Positions 20,881 to 30,448 of a DNA stretch of 64,000 bases are shown here, piece after piece. The DNA comes from Gammaproteobacteria bacterium (lineage in GTDB: Bacteria > Pseudomonadota > Gammaproteobacteria > Eutrophobiales > Eutrophobiaceae): NCBI GenBank assembly GCA_965204045.1, contig CBDBDW010000002.1, forward strand, positions 2,946,610-3,010,609, given 5' to 3'. The notes below the pieces were generated by a model. It searched no databases and was not told where the DNA came from. It saw nothing but the letters and a program-made list of their open reading frames with translations. Each line of letters starts with the position of its first letter. Positions within the stretch are counted from its first letter, which is position 1. Made by a program: the position numbers and the translations under genes.

Positions 20881-21174
20881 TCAGCGTCCGGGTTTTTCCT
20901 GGATGATTGAGGGTTGCTTTTCTATCAACGCCAATAGAATCCGCGCCGGCCCTTCCGGGCGCTGGCGCCCCAGTTCCCAATTTTTCAGTGTATCGAGCGA
21001 GACATCAATGCTTTTGGCAAAAGCTGTTTGTGAGAGCCCTGTCTTGCCTCGTACAGTCACGACATCGGGGGCTGATACTTCAATTCCGTGCACCGCGAAA
21101 CCATTGCGACCGCCCTCGAGGTAAACGCGGGTATCCTTAAGGCCGGTCATGACTTTATCGAATGCTTCACTCAT
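20881..21174 (-). CDS. HTH (Xre-family) antitoxin, HigA-like
   Basis: 97 aa with a helix-turn-helix segment LSQTAFAKSIDVSLDTLKNWE. Overlaps the upstream toxin gene by 4 bp. Confidence 0.7.
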   Translation of the reverse strand: MSEAFDKVMTGLKDTRVYLEGGRNGFAVHGIEVSAPDVVTVRGKTGLSQTAFAKSIDVSLDTLKNWELGRQRPEGPARILLALIEKQPSIIQEKPGR

Positions 21175-21569
21175 TGGCGCCTCCTGTAATTTTCAATCAT
21201 ATCTTTTGCAGCAGCTACCAGTGCCTCTCGTTCCCCGGAGCTGAGATTTGTTTTCTCATTCTTGGCAAATACGGCAAGTAAAAACACGGGAATGGTTTTG
21301 TCGGAAAACAGAAACACTACACGCGCCCCGCTGCTTTTACCACGCCCTGAACGGGCAAACCGCATTTTTCGTATGCCTCCTCCAAGTGACACGCCAGACT
21401 TTGGATTCTTTGCTACTGTGTTGACGATTTCATCTCGTTCCGAGTCTGACAGTATTCCCTTTGCTGCCGTGAGATACGCAGGCGTCTCAACGACAGTCTG
21501 TAAACTACCGCTCATAGAAAAATCATAGGTATCCCGGGCCTCGAAGTCAATAGCGATTGTATAACACAA
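21171..21569 (-). CDS. RelE/HigB-like toxin (Gp49/phage-derived RelE-fold family)
   Basis: Motifs RKMRF...GARVVFLF...VFLLAVFAKNEKTNLS are characteristic of HigB/Gp49-like toxins. Toxin-first orientation with an Xre antitoxin downstream. Confidence 0.65.
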   Translation of the reverse strand: MCYTIAIDFEARDTYDFSMSGSLQTVVETPAYLTAAKGILSDSERDEIVNTVAKNPKSGVSLGGGIRKMRFARSGRGKSSGARVVFLFSDKTIPVFLLAVFAKNEKTNLSSGEREALVAAAKDMIENYRRRQ

Positions 21570-21678: not shown

Positions 21679-24360
21679 ATGAATGAGAAACCAAAGGAAA
21701 ACCGCTTCCTGGACGCGTTGGAAGCCCTGTTTACCGGCGCCGAAGTAGAGGGCGAATCCGGCTTCATCAACCTGATGAGGATGAAACGGGGATATTTTAA
21801 ATCCTTGCGTCCGAAACTCATGGAAAAAATCGACAGTCGTGCCGGGAAAGATACGGCTTTCCGGGAAGAACTGTTCGATAAACTGTACACCTTTTTCAGT
21901 CGTTATTTCTGTGAAAGCGGCTCGATCTATTTCCGTCACTTGCCTGCTTTCTCAAAAATCTATGAGCGCGTCTATTCCTCTGATGAAGACGTTGCGTTGT
22001 CATGGAAAACCCACATGCTATATTACGTGAAATCGGACATCCTGGTGCGTTCCATGCCGGTAAGGCTGGAGGACAAACAGAATCCCGCACACAGGAGACT
22101 GTTTTACTTCGACGCTTCCCAGGTTGAACACAAACGTAACAACGAGCGACGCGAGTTTGTTTTTGAGTTCGCAAAAGTGGAAAGAAGCCCGGAAGGCAAC
22201 GTTGTACATCTCTCGGTATCCTACTCCCAGAAAGGCAGAAAAACCAAGCTTGAGACCATTATCAGAAAGGCCAGAAACGCGCCCGGCGCCAAGGTAATGC
22301 TGAGTGAAGATGACTTACAAGACGCATTTCGGGTTTTCAAACGGCAGACGGAAGCCGATTTCTTTATCAACAAGGATGCGCGGGGCTTTCTCCGCGAACA
22401 ATTCGACTTGTGGCTTTACCAGTACATGTTTCAGGATGAGACAATTTTTGAACAAAAACGGCTTGACCAGTTGCAAGCTATCCAGCTAACCGCGTACGAC
22501 ATCATAGATTTCATTGCCCAGTTTGAGGATGAACTGCGGCGGACCTGGGAGAAACCGAAGTTTGTACGCAACGTCAATTACGTGGTGACACTGGATAAAC
22601 TGCCCCCCGGACTGCTGGATAAGATTGTCAGGCACAAGGGCGCGGCAGCGCAGGTTGAGGAATGGCAATCGCTGGAACTGGTGGATGAGCAATTTTCCAT
22701 CGCGGAATTAAACAAGGGGGACGGTGAACTGGACCTGGAGAGTAACGGTCCCGTTAACAGGGCTTGCCGCTTTCTGCCTTTGGATACAAAGCATTTCAAA
22801 GAACTGGAGATGGAAATTCTTGGCGCGCTGGGCGACTTGGACGAGGCACTGGACGGCGAACTGGTACACAGTGAGAACTGGCAGGCGTTGAATACCCTGC
22901 AAAAGCGGTATAGGGGAAGGGTGAAGTGTATTCACGTTGATCCGCCCTATAACACGAAAACCAGCGGTTTTCTTTATCGGAATCAATACAAGCATTCCAG
23001 TTGGCTTACGATGATGGAAAACCGTGTGAATATTGCGTTGGAATTACTTGCGGAAGACGGTTCATTTTTGTGCCATATTGATGAGAACGAATACGAAAGA
23101 CTCCAGCTTCTCATGGAGAATACGGGATTGCTCAATCCCGGAACGGTAATATGGGATAAGAAAAACCCGATGATGGGAGCTAGAGGGATTTCTACTCGGC
23201 ATGAATATATCTTGTGGCGGACAAGACACGAGGGGGCTTTCTATCTCAAAAACACGAATGTCCAAGCCATGCTCGCTAAATCCAAAGAACTTATAAAAAA
23301 ACACGGTGGTGTGAATGGCAATGTGCGTAAAGAATTTTCGCGATGGGTAGAGGGCAATGTAGATCTCACCGGAGGAGAACGTGCTTACCGATTTTTAGAT
23401 GACAAAGGACAAGTTTATCGGGGTGTCGCTATGGTGTGGCCGAATCCCAACCCTGCTCCTGATAAATTCTTTGTTCCTTTAATACACCCTCTCACGAGAA
23501 AGCCATGTCCAGTTCCCCAAAGGGGTTGGTCGCAGTCGCCAGAAAGAATGAAAAGTCTTTTAGAAAAAGGGGAGATTCTATTCGGCAAAGACGAAACTAC
23601 TCAGCCACAGCGTAAGATATATCTCACCGGAGAATCCAGGCGCCCTGTCTCAACGGTCATTGAAAATGGTAAAAGAGGAAAGAAAGAAATAGATAATTTA
23701 GGACTGGACTTTTCCTACTGTCATCCTACATCACTTTATGAAGAATTGATAAATGCGTCTTCAATAAATGGAGATGGAGTCGCTCTTGACTACTTCGCTG
23801 GCTCTGGTACCACTGGCCATGCAATCATCAACCTAAATAAGGATGACGGTGGCAATCGAAAATATGTGCTCGTCGAAATGGGAGATTATTTTCATACAGT
23901 CCTGCTCCCGCGTCTAAAGAAAATCGTTTATTCCAAAGACTGGAAAGACAGGAAGCCGGTTTCCCATGAAGGCAGCAGTCACTTTCTCAAATACTACACC
24001 TTGGAACAATACGAAGAAACCCTGAGAAATTCCCACTATCAGGACGGCGAACAACTGGAACTGGACAGCATGAAATCGCCGTTCGAGCAATACGCGTTTT
24101 TCGGAGATGACAAACTCACCCACTCAGTCAGGCCGTTAAAGAACGGCAAATTGAAAATCAACCTCCACGCGCTCTACCCGGACGTAGACATCGCGGAGTC
24201 ACTCTCCAACATCCTCGGCAAACCCATCCGTCATCGTACGGCTGACACCGTAACGTTCACCGATGGCGCCACCGAAAAAACCAACCTCGCAACCATGACC
24301 GAGCAAGAGAAACGGCATTTCATCTCATTGGTGAAACCCTACCTGTGGTGGGGAGAGTGA
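21679..24360 (+). CDS. type III R-M Mod-like N6-adenine DNA methyltransferase (beta class: DPPY, then TRD, then FxGxG) with a ~400-aa N-terminal extension of unknown function
   Basis: IHVDPPYNT (motif IV) about 290 aa upstream of DYFAGSGTTGHA (motif I), which is the beta-class order typical of Mod. 893 aa, about 250-300 aa longer than typical Mod. Confidence 0.75.
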   Translation: MNEKPKENRFLDALEALFTGAEVEGESGFINLMRMKRGYFKSLRPKLMEKIDSRAGKDTAFREELFDKLYTFFSRYFCESGSIYFRHLPAFSKIYERVYSSDEDVALSWKTHMLYYVKSDILVRSMPVRLEDKQNPAHRRLFYFDASQVEHKRNNERREFVFEFAKVERSPEGNVVHLSVSYSQKGRKTKLETIIRKARNAPGAKVMLSEDDLQDAFRVFKRQTEADFFINKDARGFLREQFDLWLYQYMFQDETIFEQKRLDQLQAIQLTAYDIIDFIAQFEDELRRTWEKPKFVRNVNYVVTLDKLPPGLLDKIVRHKGAAAQVEEWQSLELVDEQFSIAELNKGDGELDLESNGPVNRACRFLPLDTKHFKELEMEILGALGDLDEALDGELVHSENWQALNTLQKRYRGRVKCIHVDPPYNTKTSGFLYRNQYKHSSWLTMMENRVNIALELLAEDGSFLCHIDENEYERLQLLMENTGLLNPGTVIWDKKNPMMGARGISTRHEYILWRTRHEGAFYLKNTNVQAMLAKSKELIKKHGGVNGNVRKEFSRWVEGNVDLTGGERAYRFLDDKGQVYRGVAMVWPNPNPAPDKFFVPLIHPLTRKPCPVPQRGWSQSPERMKSLLEKGEILFGKDETTQPQRKIYLTGESRRPVSTVIENGKRGKKEIDNLGLDFSYCHPTSLYEELINASSINGDGVALDYFAGSGTTGHAIINLNKDDGGNRKYVLVEMGDYFHTVLLPRLKKIVYSKDWKDRKPVSHEGSSHFLKYYTLEQYEETLRNSHYQDGEQLELDSMKSPFEQYAFFGDDKLTHSVRPLKNGKLKINLHALYPDVDIAESLSNILGKPIRHRTADTVTFTDGATEKTNLATMTEQEKRHFISLVKPYLWWGE

Positions 24361-24364
24361 TACA

Positions 24365-25015
24365 GTGAAGCAAGAAAATTACACCGCGCCCGTTTTTCGA
24401 CAAAAGGCATTCCATTGTCCGATATGCAATGTTTATGCAAACCAGGATTGGTATCCTGCCTACTATGGTTTTAGGGAACTTGGGTTAAACCAGATAGAGA
24501 TTCTACAAATTGCTCTTTGTGCTCATTGCGGACATTTTTCTTTCTGGCTGAACGGTAATCTCGTATATCCCAAAAAAATTACCGCCCCACTTGCGCATAG
24601 GGACATGCCAGAAACCGTAGTCGGCTATTACAACGAAGCGCGGGAAATATCTACTTCTTCTCCAAGATCTGCAGCAGCATTGCTTCGCATCGCCGCCAAA
24701 AAGCTCTGTGAAGCACTTGGAGAAAATGAACCTAACCTGAACCGAGCTATAGGCAACTTGAGCAAAAAAGGTTTGCCGCAAAATGTAATAAAATCACTGG
24801 ACACAGTCAGGATTGTGGGCAATGAAGGTGGCGCTCACGAAGGGCAGATTGATCTGACTGGTGAAGACAATAAGGAAATTGTTGACAGGTTATTCTGGTT
24901 AATCAATTTCATTATTGAAAAAACCATTACAGAACCAAGCGAAATAGAAAACACCTTCAGTTCCTTGCCGGAAAATAAAAGACAGGCTGCTGAAAAAAGA
25001 GACGAAGGAAAATAA
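24365..25015 (+). CDS. zinc-ribbon + DUF4145-like (possible HEPN-like) domain protein, translationally coupled to mod
   Basis: N-terminal CPIC...CAHC zinc ribbon. C-terminal segment RIAAKKLCEAL...SLDTVRIVGNEGGAHEG resembles DUF4145 as recalled from memory. GTG start 4 bp after the mod stop. Confidence 0.5.
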   Translation: MKQENYTAPVFRQKAFHCPICNVYANQDWYPAYYGFRELGLNQIEILQIALCAHCGHFSFWLNGNLVYPKKITAPLAHRDMPETVVGYYNEAREISTSSPRSAAALLRIAAKKLCEALGENEPNLNRAIGNLSKKGLPQNVIKSLDTVRIVGNEGGAHEGQIDLTGEDNKEIVDRLFWLINFIIEKTITEPSEIENTFSSLPENKRQAAEKRDEGK

Positions 25016-25187
25016 CAGTTGCAAAAGAATAGATTCGCTTCCTACTGTCACTTAAACATCGTGAATGGTGGAGGAAATAAGAATAGAACGGCAAAAGAAT
25101 CCTCTTCAGGATTTTGCACTGTAGCTATAGATATTCAGTTTATTGGAAGAAAATACCAAGCATAATTAATAACTGGAACTAGACAGC

Positions 25188-25481
25188 ATGAAATCACCGT
25201 TTCAGCAATACGTTTTTTTCGGTGACGATAAACTCGCTCATGCGGCCCAACCATCGGAAAACGGCAAACTGGACATCAACCTGCAAGACCTGTACCCTGA
25301 TATAGACATCGCAGAGTCACTTTCCAATGTCCTGGGCAAACCCATCCGTTGCCTTACAACAAATAGTGTTACCTTTATCGATGGAACGACAGAAAAAACT
25401 AACCCAGCCACCATGACAGAAGAAGAAAAACGCCATTTTCTCTCACTTATTAAACCTTATTTGTGGTGGGGTGTTCTATGA
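25188..25481 (+). pseudogene. diverged duplicate of the mod 3' end (97 codons, homologous to mod residues ~797-893); recombination scar or orphan fragment
   Basis: Protein identity to the Mod C-terminus is about 75% (MKSPFQQYVFFGDDKL.. versus MKSPFEQYAFFGDDKL..). Nucleotide identity about 75%. Copy B is more AT-rich. Confidence 0.7.
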
Positions 25482-26881
25482 ATCTCAATCTGAATATTAA
25501 AAATATCGGCAAGTTGACCAATGCTGAAATTCATATTGCAAACTTCACAGTGTTTGCAGGACCAAACAATACAGGTAAGAGTTTCGTTTCTAAGCTGCTG
25601 TATTCGCTGTTTAATGCTATGAACGCCAATCATATACAGATACATGTGAACAACTTGATCAAGCCCGTTGTAAGCAGTTTTTTCAGGCTGGATAGATTGG
25701 CACACTATAACATCGAAAAATCACAGCCTTTGCTGGAGGAGGGTGACCTAGAAAAACTGGAAGCCCTTGTCGAAGATTGTATGCCTGGTGACTCTAAAGA
25801 ACTGGATGAGGTTATAAGTAATCTTATCCACCAGACGAATGAGATTGAGAAAAAAGTAAACGATATTCAGATCCCTGAAGGAGTAAAAGAGGAAGCGAAA
25901 GGAAGGCAAAATGGAACATCACCTATCATGAGAATGAAAGAAACACATGAGGAATTAAAAAAATCTTTGGATAAATTAAAACAAGATTTAAGCGGGGGGG
26001 ATTGGCTGGATTTTATAGTCGCTGGGATGAAGTACAAAATCCGGCAAAACCTGATTCATAATTTCCAAACACCTACATTATCGGGCCTCATAGCTGAAGA
26101 CGATGCACCCTCAGAAATCATGTTCAAAAACTTCGGAAAATTCGAACTATTAAATGATGAAATCGAATTTGCGATAGACGAAATTTTGGTGCAGGAATTA
26201 CAACATCATTCCAACGTAATCTATCTGGAATCGCCCGTCTACTGGAAATTAAAGAATGCCCTAGATGATATAAGACGTAACCCGCGGAGAATGTTCTTTA
26301 GAAGAGAAAGGGAGCTACTGAGTGGCGTTCCCGAGTACTTCTATGATCTGATCACTGCACTAAGTTTTCAGCGCACAGGTGGCATTGCATTTCCGAACGT
26401 ATATGAAAAGTTGACGGGCAAGGAGGTCATGGGCGGGAAGATTGCCATTTCGGAAAGTGGCAATTTATCATTTCAAGAGAATGAGCGAAATTTCACATTG
26501 CCGCTTACCGCGATGGGAATAGTGAACATGGGAATATTGGCGTTGTTAATTGAACGTAATGTACTGGATAAAGATACTGTTATTTTTATCGATGAACCGG
26601 AAGCGCACCTACACCCCGCTTGGCAGGTCGTCATGGCGGAAGCCCTCTTTGAACTGTCCCGCTATGGTGTGAACGTAGTCATTGCTACCCATAGTGTGGA
26701 CATTCTTAAATGGCTGGAAGTACATGTGAAGAAAAAGCCTGAAGACAAGCAACTAATTGCACTAAACCAGTTTCCCGTCAACAACAGCGAAGTTGATGAA
26801 GATTTTGAAACCAAAATGGCAAATATCAAGCAGGAATTAACCCAGCCCTTCTCTGACTTGTATGTGGAAGGACTGTTATGA
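25478..26881 (+). CDS. ABC/SMC-like AAA ATPase (AAA_15/AAA_21-type) with a coiled-coil insertion; defence-associated ATPase embedded in the R-M locus
   Basis: Walker A FAGPNNTGKS. Walker B/D-loop VIFIDEPEAHLHP. H-loop IATHS. About 110-aa coiled-coil insert. No Toprim or other nuclease domain. Low-GC gene. Confidence 0.7.
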   Translation: MNLNLNIKNIGKLTNAEIHIANFTVFAGPNNTGKSFVSKLLYSLFNAMNANHIQIHVNNLIKPVVSSFFRLDRLAHYNIEKSQPLLEEGDLEKLEALVEDCMPGDSKELDEVISNLIHQTNEIEKKVNDIQIPEGVKEEAKGRQNGTSPIMRMKETHEELKKSLDKLKQDLSGGDWLDFIVAGMKYKIRQNLIHNFQTPTLSGLIAEDDAPSEIMFKNFGKFELLNDEIEFAIDEILVQELQHHSNVIYLESPVYWKLKNALDDIRRNPRRMFFRRERELLSGVPEYFYDLITALSFQRTGGIAFPNVYEKLTGKEVMGGKIAISESGNLSFQENERNFTLPLTAMGIVNMGILALLIERNVLDKDTVIFIDEPEAHLHPAWQVVMAEALFELSRYGVNVVIATHSVDILKWLEVHVKKKPEDKQLIALNQFPVNNSEVDEDFETKMANIKQELTQPFSDLYVEGLL

Positions 26882-27444
26882 CGTCTCTGGATAGCTTCCG
26901 GGAGAAACAGAATGTTTCCTCCGGCAAAGATTTTGAAGCCTTCCGCATGGATAACACAAAAAAGGCCGAAGGGATTCCTGATATGAGAACACACGTCGGG
27001 TTGGGTAGTTGTGATTGCTGTGACTATTTTCTTGTCCATGAAAATAAAGTTGTGCTGGTTGAAGAAACCCGGTTAGCGGATACCATTAAAACCATAGGAA
27101 AAAAATACTCTTACCTTACTGAACCCCACAGGCAGAAATTTACCGAAAATTGTGTCAGGCAGGAAAACTATGTGAAGGTATATGGGGCTTTGCTCGTCCT
27201 GTGCCGTCTGGCTGCGAAGTGCCGGGAAGCATCGACCCTGATACAAGACAAAAAACACGTTTTTTATCTTGTTGTCAAAGGAATGGAAACAGAAGAGGCA
27301 AAAAGGATGTTCGATAACTTGAAAGACAATTTGCAGTTGCAGTTACAAAGCGTCCTGACTCCGGCGGTAATGGACAATGTGGAAGTGATACCGTCCCGTG
27401 AGCTCCTGGCCGACAAACTATCACAACATGCAACCCGCTCTTGA
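26878..27444 (+). CDS. 188-aa partner protein of the ATPase (possible RloB/AbiLii-like or PD-(D/E)xK-like effector); function unknown
   Basis: Start overlaps the ATPase stop (ATGA). Contains IPD...x19...VHENK, a possible PD-ExK arrangement, and a CDCCD cluster. No confident domain call. Confidence 0.4.
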   Translation: MTSLDSFREKQNVSSGKDFEAFRMDNTKKAEGIPDMRTHVGLGSCDCCDYFLVHENKVVLVEETRLADTIKTIGKKYSYLTEPHRQKFTENCVRQENYVKVYGALLVLCRLAAKCREASTLIQDKKHVFYLVVKGMETEEAKRMFDNLKDNLQLQLQSVLTPAVMDNVEVIPSRELLADKLSQHATRS

Positions 27445-30400
27445 ACCCATCACCCAAACCCTGAACTACGGCGACCTGCCCGAAACCTGGCGCGTGCCGG
27501 AGATTGAACGCTTTTCAGTACAGAAAACACTGTATGACTATCAGGAAGACGCGCTTCGGTGTGCAGCGCGGGCGCTGTACCTGTACTATGGAAAGGAAGG
27601 AAATGACTACCAGACCGGGGAATCGCAAGCTGCCGACAGCGCCCGTAAGCAGGATTTTGCCAACCGGTACTCCTCTTCCCAACTTAACGACTTTTCAGTA
27701 AAGCAGTACGAAACCAACTCAGACAGACAAAACCGGAGAGAGAGCCCCGTCTTTAAAATTCTTTCCGAGTATATAACGCCGCAAGGTGAAGAAATTCCAT
27801 ACCGGCAACTCATTAATCGCATGTGCTTCTGGATGGCAACCGGCAGCGGGAAAACCCTGGTCATGGTAAAACTGGTTGAGTACTTGCACAGGTTGATGGG
27901 ACACGGTGGAATTCCACCGCACAAAATCCTCATTCTTGCTCCGAGCGATCATCTTATCGGACAGATTCGCCGGGCTATAGAAGAATTCAACCAAGCCGGC
28001 CTGAATATCGATTTTGTCCATCTTCGGGAACATGGAAAAATATCGCAGAGCCGACTCGGAGACTCTGTAACAGTCTATTACCATCGTAGCGACAACCTCT
28101 CTGACATGCAGAAGGAGGCGCTGACAGATTATCGCACCCACGAAGACGCCGGGAAATGGTATGTCCTCCTGGACGAGGCCCACAAGGGAGGCAAGGAAGA
28201 TTCAAAACGACAGGCGTATTACGCCATCATGGCTCGCCATGGGTTTCTGTTTAATTTCTCGGCCACGTTCACTGACCCTGAGGATATTGTAACGACAGTC
28301 AAGAAATACAACCTGGAGGAATTCATCAGGAACGGGCATGGTAAAAATATTTACCTGAATGAGAAAGAATACGAGGTGTTCAAACACAGGGAGCAGGAAA
28401 TCAGCCACGACGAAAGACGGAAAATCGTCTTGAAGTCACTTATCGCGCTGGCTTACGTGTCGCTCAGGGTGAAGGAACTCCGCAAAAATACGGGTTTGAA
28501 AGAACTCTATCACCTGCCTCTGATGCTGACCCTGGTCAACTCGGTGAATACCGACGTGGAAAATGAGAGGAATGACCTGTGGGCGTTTTTCCAGACCTTG
28601 CGCGAGATTGCTACGGGAGAGGTGGATGACGCGCTTTTCCGGACAGCAAAAAAAGACCTTGCGAAGGAATGGGCAGATGCGACCTTTCTTTTTGGGGAGG
28701 TCGGCGGAGAAATTATCCGGCTTGACCAGGCCCGAATCACAGGCATAAAACTAACCGACCTGCGCGAAGCGGTGTTTTCAGGTCGCAGAAAAAGCTCGTT
28801 ACAGTTAATCCGCAGCAAGGACAACAAGGAACTCGCTTTTCAGGTCAGAAACGCAGATGCCCCGTTTGCGCTGATTCGCATAGGAGATACCTCCAAGTGG
28901 CGGAATAACCTCCTGACAGGTTACGAAGAAACCAAAACCTTGCAGGAAAAATCTTTTTTTGATGACCTGGAAAAAAGTTCAATCACAATTCTCATGGGGT
29001 CCCGCTCTTTCTTCGAAAGCTGGGACTCCAACCGCCCCAATGTCATCAACTTCATCAATATCGGTGGAACCGAGGCAAAGAAATTTGTCGTGCAGTCCGT
29101 CGGGCGCGGCGTGCGCATCGAGACATTGCCCAACCAACGCCGCCGTTACGCCTTCCTGCCGGACAGTAACGAAAAGAACCTGCTTCAGGATTACGCCTGT
29201 GAAGTGCAGCCCGCAGAGACGCTGTTCCTTTTTGCCACTAATCGCAACGCGGTGAAGTCTGTTCTGGAAGGGCTGCAAACGGAAAAAAGCGGTATTTTTG
29301 AAAACGTTGACGGCTTTGTCAGGTCGCCAAAGCCGGTGATCAACGGCCAGTTACTGCCGCTCCTGGTCCCGGAATACAAAGAGGAAAAGACAGGTACGGC
29401 GACAAAGGCAAAATTTGCAATGAGTTCGGATACGCTGAACAGGTTCAGGAACTACCTTGCAAAAACTTCGGATTCGGCGCTTGCCGTCCGCGACAACCTG
29501 GTAGCCCGGGAGATAGCTGAGTTACGCGCATGCGCAGAAGGCAAAGAAAATATCCGCTTGGATCCGGGAAAGAACTACAGCAGCCTTGCCTTCCTGCAAA
29601 ATCGCCTCATATCCCACCTGTCAAAAACGGGGAGGATAGCCGATGGCCTGCGCGAACTGGATGAGGATGAAGACATCGTTCACTTTCGCAAAATACAAGT
29701 GCGACTGTCTCAAGGAGACCTGATCGATTTACAGAAGAAACTCAAAGCTGTCGCACAAGGCGATATATCCGAAGATGAAAAGAAAAAACGGGCGCTTCAG
29801 TACGCAGAAAACAAAATCAGCGAGGAAGAATTCATGGAGTATATCAGCGGCAAATCTGAAGAAACATTCAACGACTTGAAAATCAAAAACATTTCCAGGC
29901 ATTACTATGCGCCGGTTATTGCCGCCCAGACCGGAGCAGCGGATTTCATTAAGCACATCATCAGGGAAGAAAGCGAAGTGCGGTTTCTTGACAACCTGGA
30001 ACAATGGTTAGAAGACAATGACCCAGGATGGGACGCCTGGATGTTCAGCAAAATAGATGAGACATTGGACAATATCTATATACCTTACTACGATGCTACA
30101 ACCAATGAATACACTCGCTTCCTGCCGGATTTCATCTTCTGGATGTACAAGGATGATGAATACCGCATCGTTTTTGTTGATCCGAAAGGGACGGCGCACA
30201 AATCCGCCTATCTTAAAATTGACGGATATCAAAAACTGTTCGAACCGGAAAATAAACTGAAAGAATTCAAATACCGGAAACATGATCCTGGAACAAGCGC
30301 GGTATCGGAAGAGGATAACCCGGTTTCCGGCGCACGGATAAACGTCAGACTTTTGATGTTTAATGCGGATAGCGCCGTGCCGGATGCTTACAAGCGTTTC

Positions 30401-30448
30401 TGGACGGCTGCTCCGGCAGATGTTTTTTCCTGTGCCGCAAGCGGATGA
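27428..30448 (+). CDS. type III R-M Res-like subunit: SF2 helicase (motifs I, II, III, VI) with a C-terminal PD-(D/E)xK endonuclease
   Basis: MATGSGKT (I), LLDEAHKG (II), FSAT (III), QSVGRGVRI (VI). C-terminal LPDFIFW...IVFVDPKG. Start taken at MQPALEP (27428), overlapping the upstream stop. Confidence 0.75.
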   Translation: MQPALEPITQTLNYGDLPETWRVPEIERFSVQKTLYDYQEDALRCAARALYLYYGKEGNDYQTGESQAADSARKQDFANRYSSSQLNDFSVKQYETNSDRQNRRESPVFKILSEYITPQGEEIPYRQLINRMCFWMATGSGKTLVMVKLVEYLHRLMGHGGIPPHKILILAPSDHLIGQIRRAIEEFNQAGLNIDFVHLREHGKISQSRLGDSVTVYYHRSDNLSDMQKEALTDYRTHEDAGKWYVLLDEAHKGGKEDSKRQAYYAIMARHGFLFNFSATFTDPEDIVTTVKKYNLEEFIRNGHGKNIYLNEKEYEVFKHREQEISHDERRKIVLKSLIALAYVSLRVKELRKNTGLKELYHLPLMLTLVNSVNTDVENERNDLWAFFQTLREIATGEVDDALFRTAKKDLAKEWADATFLFGEVGGEIIRLDQARITGIKLTDLREAVFSGRRKSSLQLIRSKDNKELAFQVRNADAPFALIRIGDTSKWRNNLLTGYEETKTLQEKSFFDDLEKSSITILMGSRSFFESWDSNRPNVINFINIGGTEAKKFVVQSVGRGVRIETLPNQRRRYAFLPDSNEKNLLQDYACEVQPAETLFLFATNRNAVKSVLEGLQTEKSGIFENVDGFVRSPKPVINGQLLPLLVPEYKEEKTGTATKAKFAMSSDTLNRFRNYLAKTSDSALAVRDNLVAREIAELRACAEGKENIRLDPGKNYSSLAFLQNRLISHLSKTGRIADGLRELDEDEDIVHFRKIQVRLSQGDLIDLQKKLKAVAQGDISEDEKKKRALQYAENKISEEEFMEYISGKSEETFNDLKIKNISRHYYAPVIAAQTGAADFIKHIIREESEVRFLDNLEQWLEDNDPGWDAWMFSKIDETLDNIYIPYYDATTNEYTRFLPDFIFWMYKDDEYRIVFVDPKGTAHKSAYLKIDGYQKLFEPENKLKEFKYRKHDPGTSAVSEEDNPVSGARINVRLLMFNADSAVPDAYKRFWTAAPADVFSCAASG

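Follow-up and report, generated by a model that had tools for sequence, protein, structure and literature searches.

A two-gene cassette of an ABC ATPase and a small partner with a predicted, putatively remodelled restriction-endonuclease-like site, embedded in a Type III restriction-modification locus

The window analysed here, a stretch of 64,000 nucleotides, carries on its forward strand a Type III restriction-modification (R-M) locus in which further genes are embedded. An intact mod gene (positions 21679-24360, 893 aa; PADLOC MTase_III 8.5e-202, Pfam N6_N4_Mtase) is followed by a 216-aa PD-T7-4 homologue (24365-25015), which matches PADLOC PD-T7-4 over its full length (1.6e-72) and Pfam DUF4145 (2.4e-11) and represents a second embedded defence gene besides the cassette described below. 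Next comes the 3'-end remnant of a different Type III mod allele (25173-25477), which shares 76% amino acid and 74.7% nucleotide identity with the final 100 codons of the resident mod (24050-24353) and matches PADLOC MTase_III at 6e-06. The stop codon of this remnant overlaps, in an ATGA, the start of a gene for an ABC ATPase of the OLD/PtuA-like clade (25478-26881, 467 aa, no nuclease fused), and a second ATGA, as read from the sequence, joins the ATPase stop to the start of a 188-aa partner (26878-27444) that belongs to an unannotated family with a predicted restriction-endonuclease-like (REase-like) alpha/beta fold. An intact res gene completes the locus (27428-30448; Pfam ResIII 2e-15, PADLOC REase_III 1.5e-25); its ORF is open from a GTG at 27398, and the probable start is the ATG at 27428, which would overlap the 3' end of the partner by 17 nt. 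The cassette thus lies between mod and res, co-directional with them and with overlapping gene ends of its own, and a promoter and terminator scan of the locus gave nothing beyond chance. A preliminary description had proposed two overlapping genes for proteins of 467 and 188 aa joined by an ATGA, and both ORFs are confirmed. Its broader picture of a defence-type module between mod and res, in which an ABC ATPase that stands alone is linked by translational coupling to a small partner of predicted nuclease fold, holds as well.

Both cassette ORFs are real genes and not chance ORFs, because their dN/dS ratios against the orthologous locus of a sister genome (L001) are 0.188 for the ATPase and 0.182 for the partner, because the partner family forms 262 clusters at 50% identity, and because the gene order, with an ATPase directly upstream of the partner, is kept in some 60 of the 64 related loci, which come from seven phyla. 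This last figure also answers, in the affirmative, whether homologues of the partner occur beside ABC ATPases, which had been set as a test of the pair. Purifying selection acts on both genes, ATPase and partner co-evolve (r = 0.72, 54 loci), and the ATPase begins with an ATG whose methionine is likewise used by its homologues. The GC content of the cassette genes (0.41 and 0.45) is lower than that of mod (0.477) and res (0.495), as had been remarked before, and lower than that of core genes (0.55-0.56). One protein (P0084) that had been considered as a fusion of ATPase and partner, and hence as a Rosetta stone, was rejected; it is an internal-deletion product in which the N-terminal half of the ATPase is joined to the partner.

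ABC domains are the only domains that Pfam recognises in the ATPase (AAA_15 2.5e-17, AAA_21 2.3e-13). A check against these two profiles had been suggested and turned out positive, but given that both are common to many defence ATPases, the match does not discriminate. No fused Toprim or nuclease domain was found in profile scans or in the structural model, which consists of an ABC head, a helical insert and a C-terminal helix, in agreement with the earlier statement that the protein is neither OLD nor GajA. Walker A, Q-loop, Walker B and H-loop are intact. In a 32-sequence alignment (A3), the P-loop G28-P-N-N-T-G-K34-S35 (25559-25582) has invariant G28, P29, N30, G33, K34 and S35, with N31 and T32 conserved in at least 90%, and invariant columns also mark a signature-like L341-P-x-T-A-M-G347, the Walker B and D-loop F370-x-D372-E373-P-E-A-H-L-H-P380 and the H-loop A403-T-H405-S406 (together 26498-26695). 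A match to phrog_14430 spans the entire ATPase (4e-77), and no close relatives of the ATPase were found in GenBank phages, plasmids or IMG/VR.

Two further parts of the ATPase deserve attention. Residues 52-196 (25631-26065) form a hypervariable insert, with a mean column conservation of 0.46 (0.25-0.37 at its centre) compared with 0.84-0.86 for the ATPase core, and this insert is a candidate trigger-sensing surface. AF2 predicts it as helices at 52-78, 88-99, 106-128, 149-173 and 176-196. The protein had been called a coiled-coil ATPase, and a helical insert is indeed there; however, it consists of five bundled helices, each 12-27 residues long, and is not a long coiled coil of the Rad50/SMC type. 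At the C terminus, residues 443-467 (26804-26878; DFETKMAxIKQELTxPFSDLYxEGL) are conserved at 0.79, with F443, L454, P457, F458, L461, Y462 and G465 invariant, and the AF2 model places a helix at 443-466. This helix is a putative docking site for the partner, by analogy with WonB, for which docking on the dimerised C-terminal extensions of WonA has been predicted (PMC12137116).

The partner is predicted to adopt a REase-like rather than a Toprim-like fold, and its most conserved residues are of a catalytic type. Across 196 family members, the acidic residue D25 (26950-26952), just past an N-terminal beta-hairpin, is near-invariant (98%). The core motif C45-x-C47-C48-D49 ... E62-E63-T64 on the beta2-beta3 hairpin (27010-27069) is a putative PD-(D/E)xK-like site, with D49 preceding a predicted strand at 50-54 and E62 lying within another at 57-64; conservation here is 99% for D49 and E62, 97% for C48, 87% for C47 and 76% for C45. 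Position 64, the lysine site of PD-(D/E)xK enzymes, is threonine in 86% of members and lysine in 11 of the 196 (6%), and these 11 members carry the canonical E-x-K at 62-64, while the partner in the window reads E62-E63-T64, with the canonical catalytic lysine replaced by threonine. A following helix motif, E96-N97-x-x-K100-x-Y102-G103 ... C109 (27163-27210), is conserved as well (K100 99%, Y102 95%, G103 94%, C109 84%), and its E96 and N97 co-vary with T64, being found in 84% and 69% of members with threonine or serine at position 64 but in only 9% and 9% of those with lysine. Taken together, these residues point to a putative, remodelled PD-(D/E)xK centre, and the CxCC...C cysteine set may bind metal or sense redox state. 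A different site had been suggested previously, on the basis of the string IPD-x19-VHENK. The string is present, but D35, E55 and K57 do not form the active site, because they are conserved in only 60%, 14% and 20% of the 196 members.

Searches for a named family gave little for this protein. Neither HNH nor Toprim nor AriB signal was found by Pfam and PADLOC scans, which bears out the view that the partner is of neither the PtuB nor the AriB type. No NERD or other PDDEXK Pfam match was found in 48 members of the family, a Foldseek search of the PDB returned nothing significant, and none of the 150 proteins listed by an exhaustive profile search led to a named family. A match to MafB in a profile search of PDB sequences was dismissed as chance.

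The pair is narrowly distributed, apparently almost exclusively in bacteria associated with sponges, and yet crosses phyla, and many of its hosts are named as sponge symbionts. Type III mod/res genes or their remnants adjoin it in about one third of loci, whereas no Type III genes lie within 10 kb in about two thirds; the pair also stands alone between ffh and ilvBNC. In the sister genome it occupies the same chromosomal site, but beside a Type II R-M system. Neighbouring defence genes include PD-T7-4, PtuA-like, AriA-like, SIR2-like and RmrA-like genes and PDC-S01. Elsewhere the same mod-res gap is filled by unrelated cassettes, and the gap therefore behaves as a general landing pad. Across the family, the flanks carry mod-tail and res-head remnants. 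Since no homologues of the partner were found in phages, plasmids or IMG/VR, mobility is inferred only from the patchy cross-phylum spread.

We consider it reasonably probable that the cassette is an autonomous anti-phage module of the class that combines an ABC ATPase sensor with a small REase-fold partner, a class recognised only recently, with the validated examples HEC-02, WonAB and PD-T4-4, and the best reading of the cassette is that of a divergent, unannotated variant. In such a module, the ATPase would dimerise or oligomerise through its ABC heads, its conserved helix at the C terminus would hold the 188-aa partner, and the hypervariable insert would detect a phage-derived cue. ATP binding or hydrolysis would then license the partner to cleave nucleic acid; if the analogy to WonAB extends this far, the target may be RNA, leading to translation shutdown and abortive infection. 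Within the partner, D25, D49 and E62 would bind metal, K100 together with E96/N97 would be supplied by the following helix, threonine would take the canonical lysine position, and the CxCC loop would lie beside the site. The surrounding Type III R-M system would provide only a landing pad and a shared operon, with the module itself being independent.

Other readings of the same locus have to be weighed against this. The partner could be a catalytically dead adaptor of REase fold, with a DNA- or ligand-binding or regulatory role and perhaps sensing metal or redox state through its CxCC...C cysteines, in which case toxicity or protection would be due to the ATPase itself or to some host factor that is recruited. 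We regard this as unlikely. The 98-99% invariance of three acidic residues and of K100 is typical of a metal-dependent site that works and not of one in decay; the family includes both K64 and T64 forms, with positions 96 and 97 changed in a compensating manner, and this suggests that the site was remodelled rather than lost; and in the validated relatives it is the small partner that acts as nuclease effector. Alternatively, the pair might be a guard of the Type III system that fires when a phage anti-restriction protein disables Mod/Res. PrrC, which unites an ABC-type ATPase and an anticodon-nuclease domain in a single protein and depends functionally on a Type I R-M system, sets the precedent as a defence gene that is also embedded inside an R-M operon, that of EcoprrI. 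The position of the pair between mod and res, co-directional, with overlapping ends and with no terminator between, would fit such a role, as would the Type III genes or remnants adjacent in a third of loci. However, in the remaining two thirds the pair has no Type III genes within 10 kb, unlike PrrC with its Type I system; some copies lie between housekeeping genes; the orthologous locus has Type II R-M instead; and a gap that also hosts unrelated cassettes behaves as a general landing pad. A guard function thus appears decidedly improbable.

The locus could also be read as a toxin-antitoxin or addiction module that stabilises the island without phage sensing, given that it is an overlapping two-gene operon of low GC content in a mobile island where a RelE/HTH pair is found as well. 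As an antitoxin, though, an ABC ATPase of 467 aa with a full catalytic set and a hypervariable insert would be atypical, and for WonAB a simple toxin-antitoxin model has been excluded by experiment (PMC12137116), so we find this reading very improbable. The preliminary description had instead likened the pair to RloA/RloB or AbiLi/AbiLii, with which it shares the architecture of an AAA_15/21 ATPase and a small downstream ORF in an R-M locus. This resemblance did not survive closer comparison and has almost nothing left to recommend it: the RloB/AbiLii profile PF13707 matches neither the partner in the window nor 48 members of its family at E <= 1, the family has no AbiLii match in PADLOC at E <= 0.1 and no Toprim-like match, AbiLi is not among the top 25 PADLOC matches of the ATPase, and the predicted fold of the partner is REase-like. 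At the profile level, the RloA/RloB reading is effectively refuted.

Two linked and more speculative readings are put forward jointly as a doubtful possibility. One is that D25/D49/E62, a threonine in place of the lysine, the helix residues E96/N97/K100 and the CxCC...C cysteines make up an undescribed configuration of the REase site; the partner would then be a functionally distinct effector and not another copy of NERD. The other is that homologous recombination may use as its arms two conserved stretches, the 3' end of mod and the 5' end of res, between which cassettes shuttle. Units of mod tail, cassette and res head would in that case move between genomes, forming integrase-free, integron-like defence arrays, and the pair would have spread this way across at least seven phyla, many of its hosts being sponge symbionts. 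The wider interest lies in the fact that pairs of an ABC ATPase and a small nuclease are turning out to be among the largest classes of bacterial immune sensors, with few partner types described, to which the cassette adds a partner family recognised by no public profile. A partner without the textbook lysine, in which the other catalytic-type residues are 98-99% invariant, offers a natural test of how far a PD-(D/E)xK site can be rebuilt. In addition, the narrow cross-phylum spread and the mod-tail and res-head remnants make the origin of defence genes inside R-M operons testable, and 'guilt by embedding' is extended to Type III systems, which were outside the analysis of the original study.

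Closer relatives of the cassette than those named in the preliminary description are HEC-02, WonAB and PD-T4-4. HEC-02 (Hma-embedded candidate 02) likewise has two genes in one operon, for an ABC ATPase and for a partner of about 170-190 aa, and sits inside a modification-based defence system, which is Hma for HEC-02 and Type III R-M for the cassette, and its defence needs both genes (Payne et al. 2024, bioRxiv 10.1101/2024.01.29.577857). Among 133 PADLOC families, the HEC-02A models PDLC04214 (9.8e-32) and PDLC04213 (5.4e-29) match the ATPase best, followed by PD-T4-4_A (6.6e-25), NsnB and AriA. In its Walker B half, the ATPase shares 29% identity over 125 aa with the validated HEC-02A of Dickeya (BLASTP, E 5e-16). 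Its additional helical insert, some 145 aa long, splits the HEC-02A match into two stretches and accounts for the greater length of the cassette ATPase (467 aa versus 342 aa).

For the partner the comparison with HEC-02, in which the small protein HEC-02B is a NERD-like PD-(D/E)xK protein, is different. The HEC-02B model PDLC04225 matches the partner in the window weakly (E 0.0035) and 7 of 48 family members weakly over nearly their full length (best 3e-4), and four other HEC-02B models match members weakly as well (1.5e-4 to 0.012). Among 5,027 PADLOC models, these five are the only recurrent matches of the family, weak as they are, and HEC-02B models are also the only PADLOC matches, again weak, of ten members with Lys-64. 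Alignment of the partner by hhalign with a single HEC-02B sequence was not significant, nor was that with a 43-sequence HEC-02B alignment (probability 0.75-2%); under permissive settings, a likewise non-significant alignment placed D25, D49, E62, T64 and K100 of the partner collinear with D23, D43, E56, K58 and K78 of HEC-02B. Homology of the partner to HEC-02B is thus without statistical support. The two also differ at the site itself, in that HEC-02B has an invariant K58 where the cassette partner has T64, so that the (D/E/Q)xK signature of HEC-02 is absent from the partner in the window, and in that the cassette partner has a CxCC loop and not the H116/E118 motif of HEC-02B.

The nearest solved structures of the ATPase are Septu and retron PtuA (8sux, 8eea and 9kjx; Foldseek E ~1e-6, prob 1.0, with a TM score of only 0.3-0.35), in which a helical insert likewise accompanies the ABC head and which follow an oligomeric sensor-plus-nuclease logic; PtuB, in contrast, is an HNH nuclease, and the cassette partner has neither HNH nor a PtuB match. 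OLD, Gabija GajA and PARIS AriAB were considered and rejected, Toprim being found in neither cassette protein. PD-T4-4 has the same two-gene layout of ATPase and PD-(D/E)xK protein (Vassallo et al. 2022), and the PD-T4-4_B profile matches none of 48 members of the partner family. WonAB, compared here by description (WonA/B, AWB73975.1 and AWB73976.1; also SHI83489.1/SHI83462.1), consists of an ABC ATPase whose motifs deviate in an OLD-like manner and which is extended at its C terminus, and of a small partner of PD-(D/E)xK fold, and requires both genes for defence (PMC12137116). WonB retains the canonical catalytic lysine (K71) in a 16-kDa protein, whereas the cassette partner has threonine in 188 aa, and WonAB is prophage-borne, whereas the cassette lies on the chromosome and was not found in phage, plasmid or viral collections. 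Nevertheless, the cassette has the layout of WonAB, with a C-terminally extended ATPase and a small partner of predicted REase fold directly downstream, and WonAB is its best mechanistic template.

The genes for the ABC ATPase and its partner are genuine and conserved, and together make up a two-gene module of defence type. The ATPase ORF (467 aa, 25478-26881, + strand) begins at ATG 25478; a longer form starting at GTG 25463 was rejected because homologues share the methionine of ATG 25478. The start of the partner ORF (188 aa, 26878-27444, +) overlaps the ATPase stop as ATGA; both genes stand as the preliminary description gave them. The ATPase gene itself begins in a second ATGA, which it shares with the stop of a 97-codon ORF, a remnant (25173-25477, +) of the 3' end of the Type III restriction-modification (R-M) gene mod. 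For res, the probable start is ATG 27428, within the 3' end of the partner gene, so that the two overlap by 17 nt. The GC content of the pair (0.41 for the ATPase gene and 0.45 for the partner gene) is lower than that of the flanking mod and res (0.477 and 0.495), as had been noted, and core genes have 0.55-0.56. Relative to the orthologous locus L001 of a sister genome, both genes are under purifying selection (dN/dS 0.188 for the ATPase and 0.182 for the partner). Of 64 loci in species-representative genomes, about 60 have the ATPase gene immediately upstream of the partner gene, the exceptions being contig edges or degraded copies; the identities of the two proteins also co-vary across loci (r = 0.72). 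The proposed architecture, an ATPase with a coupled partner, was correct. As labelled, the hosts belong to Gamma- and Alphaproteobacteria, Nitrospirota, Acidobacteriota, Latescibacterota, Chloroflexota, Thermodesulfobacteriota and Verrucomicrobiota, and many of them are sponge symbionts by name (Poriferihabitaceae, Spongiihabitans, Porifericomitaceae, Porisulfidus).

The ATPase carries only the Pfam domains AAA_15 and AAA_21 and has no NCBIfam match at the curated cutoff. Its best PADLOC match of 133 is HEC-02A (9.8e-32), followed by PD-T4-4_A, NsnB, PDC-M47A and AriA. An alignment of 32 sequences shows little or no variation in Walker A (GPNNTGKS, 28-35); also conserved are Q197, YLESP (249-253), LPxTAMG (341-347), which resembles the signature motif, FxDEPEAHLHP (370-380; Walker B/D-loop) and H405. 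Conservation is high in the ABC core (0.84-0.86) and the C-terminal helix (0.79) and falls to 0.46 over residues 52-196 (0.25-0.37 at the centre). The AlphaFold model (pLDDT 80.3, pTM 0.82) comprises the ABC head, an insert of five helices and the C-terminal helix (443-466), without any additional domain. Its nearest solved structures are PtuA of Septu and of retrons Eco7/Ec78/Ec83 (E ~1e-6, probability 1.0, TM 0.3-0.35), and then the OLD-type effector of Eco8 and the heads of Rad50 and SMC. Despite its full-length match to phrog_14430 (function not annotated; E 4e-77), the ATPase had no close relatives among GenBank phages, plasmids or IMG/VR. One Poriferihabitaceae locus (L035, 7133-9995) has two ATPase genes in tandem ahead of its only partner gene; the encoded paralogues share 35% and 47% identity with the ATPase of the window. 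In a metagenomic protein of 445 aa (P0084), residues 4-291 of the ATPase, its N-terminal half, are followed by residues 15-181 of the partner; rather than a genuine fusion, P0084 is most likely a decayed copy with an internal deletion across the Walker B half.

The partner has no match in Pfam, NCBIfam or PHROGs, and GenBank phages, PLSDB plasmids and IMG/VR gave no homologues. Its family is small, with 73 clusters by word-indexed search and 262 clusters at 50% identity when 1.84 billion representatives were searched exhaustively with a profile; among the matches listed, none has a Pfam domain or a name other than 'hypothetical protein'. The catalytic residues proposed previously, D35/E55/K57, turned out to be wrong: the string IPD-x19-VHENK is indeed present, but across 196 diverse members these residues are only 60%, 14% and 20% conserved. 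The near-invariant polar residues are instead D25 (98%), D49 (99%), E62 (99%) and K100 (99%), together with C48 (97%), Y102 (95%), G103 (94%), C47 (87%), C109 (84%) and C45 (76%). D49 is predicted to start a strand and E62 to lie in the next, an arrangement as in the PD-(D/E)xK core. In PD-(D/E)xK enzymes, the catalytic lysine normally lies two residues after the acidic residue corresponding to E62. This position (64) is threonine in 86% of members and lysine in 11 of 196 (e.g. LIEDKQL, LIEEKRL). On the K100 helix, E96 and N97 are found in 84% and 69% of T/S64 members vs 9% each of K64 members (Fisher 4e-7 and 1e-4, although K64 is possibly one clade and independence thus overstated), and C47 is retained in 55% of K64 vs 89% of T/S64 members. 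We infer from this pattern that the family may hold two alternative active-site configurations, rather than decayed sites.

The same Type III mod/res family, or its remnants, adjoins the pair in 21 of 64 loci (about one third), and in ten to eleven of these the pair lies between intact mod and intact res. Elsewhere it stands alone among housekeeping genes (e.g. in the ffh/ilvBNC gap) or beside other defence cassettes (PtuA-like, AriA/AriAB-like, a SIR2/pAgo-associated-like pair, RmrA-like, PDC-S01). The L001 genome, related to that of the window (core genes 83-92% nucleotide identity), has the pair at the same uvrA|...|pfkB-rpsF-rplI-dnaB site with 84.7% identity; its neighbour there is a Type II R-M system (N6/N4 MTase and EcoO109I-type REase, L001 6922-8533), and Type III genes are absent. 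Thus, the pair is autonomous and its R-M neighbour interchangeable. In the window, this site (20.8-30.5 kb) holds RelE/HTH, Type III R-M and PD-T7-4 genes; only the ATPase-partner pair is common to both genomes, and the site is therefore a variable defence hotspot. The RelE-family toxin (PF06296, 132 aa) and HTH antitoxin (97 aa; 20881-21569, -) mark the edge of the low-GC island (about 20.8-30.5 kb), with uvrA on one side and mod on the other. The second defence gene in the mod-res gap, a full-length PD-T7-4 homologue (DUF4145, PADLOC 1.6e-72; 24365-25015, +), begins 5 nt past the mod stop.

Gap cassettes are repeatedly flanked upstream by the last 30-290 codons of mod and downstream by the first 40-120 codons of res, as also seen in L004, L016, L021, L022, L024, L026, L027, L030, L031 and L034. 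The window remnant has only 74.7% nucleotide identity to the resident mod tail and therefore comes from another mod allele. Together, the repeated flanks and this foreign-allele remnant suggest cassette exchange by homologous recombination via the 3' end of mod and the 5' end of res. L022 has three to four cassettes, every one of them between such remnants, and some 'solo' copies of the pair, e.g. in L016 (ffh/ilvB), retain both scars. The L024 gap contains two PD-T7-4 homologues and the pair. Another two-gene cassette (about 400 aa and about 330 aa) recurs in the same gaps (L004 10604-12825, L011, L028, L039, L050, L057); the first of its proteins has a weak resemblance to SIR2/pAgo-associated proteins (Aga_SIR2-PNTD, 2e-16). 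A remodelled, cysteine-flanked active site in the partner and mod-tail/res-head sequences acting as recombination arms for cassette exchange would be the most novel aspects of this locus if true, and we put them forward as a tentative, rather doubtful proposal.

As for mechanism, the ATPase would oligomerise via its ABC heads, with the partner docked on the conserved C-terminal helix, and a cue from the phage would be sensed by the hypervariable insert of the ATPase. Depending on its nucleotide state, the ATPase would then license a putative metal-dependent nuclease centre of the partner, formed by D25, D49 and E62 with K100 and E96/N97. By analogy with WonAB of V. cholerae, the target may possibly be RNA and the outcome abortive infection. 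The coupling of the genes, the selection on them, their motifs, the resemblance in fold and the defence setting are observed, whereas a complex of the two proteins, the sensing surface, catalysis and the target are inferred.

The class to which the pair most likely belongs is already known and experimentally validated; the unannotated partner family and its non-canonical site are new here. The suggested family analogy with RloA/RloB or AbiLi/AbiLii proved mistaken. HEC-02B models are the only recurrent PADLOC matches of the partner family. HEC-02 consists of an ABC ATPase and a NERD-like PD-(D/E)xK partner embedded in Hma systems, and its defence requires both genes (Payne et al. 2024, 10.1101/2024.01.29.577857). 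Compared with the validated Dickeya proteins (Supplementary Table 2 of that study), the Walker B half of the window ATPase is 29% identical to that of HEC-02A (E 5e-16), and Walker A also matches. Seven of 48 partner members match the HEC-02B model PDLC04225 (best 3e-4), and the ten Lys-64 members have PADLOC matches to four different HEC-02B models alone (1.5e-4 to 0.012). Profile-profile comparison with a HEC-02B reference alignment of 43 sequences (invariant D23, D43, E56, K58 and K78) is collinear, pairing D25 with D23, D49 with D43, E62 with E56, T64 with K58 and K100 with K78; given a probability of only 0.75-2%, homology of the partner to HEC-02B is plausible but unproven. WonAB comprises an ABC ATPase and the 16-kDa PD-(D/E)xK protein WonB, and has been grouped with PD-T4-4 and the 'OLD-ABC ATPase + novel REase fold' operon of Krishnan et al. 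2020 (PMC12137116). Its defence needs both proteins, with WonB depending on WonA ATPase activity and predicted to dock on the dimerised C-terminal extensions of WonA, and it acts by abortive infection via translation arrest that leaves genomic DNA intact (PMC12137116). WonAB offers the best-studied mechanism for the class of the window pair, to which it is likened in architecture.
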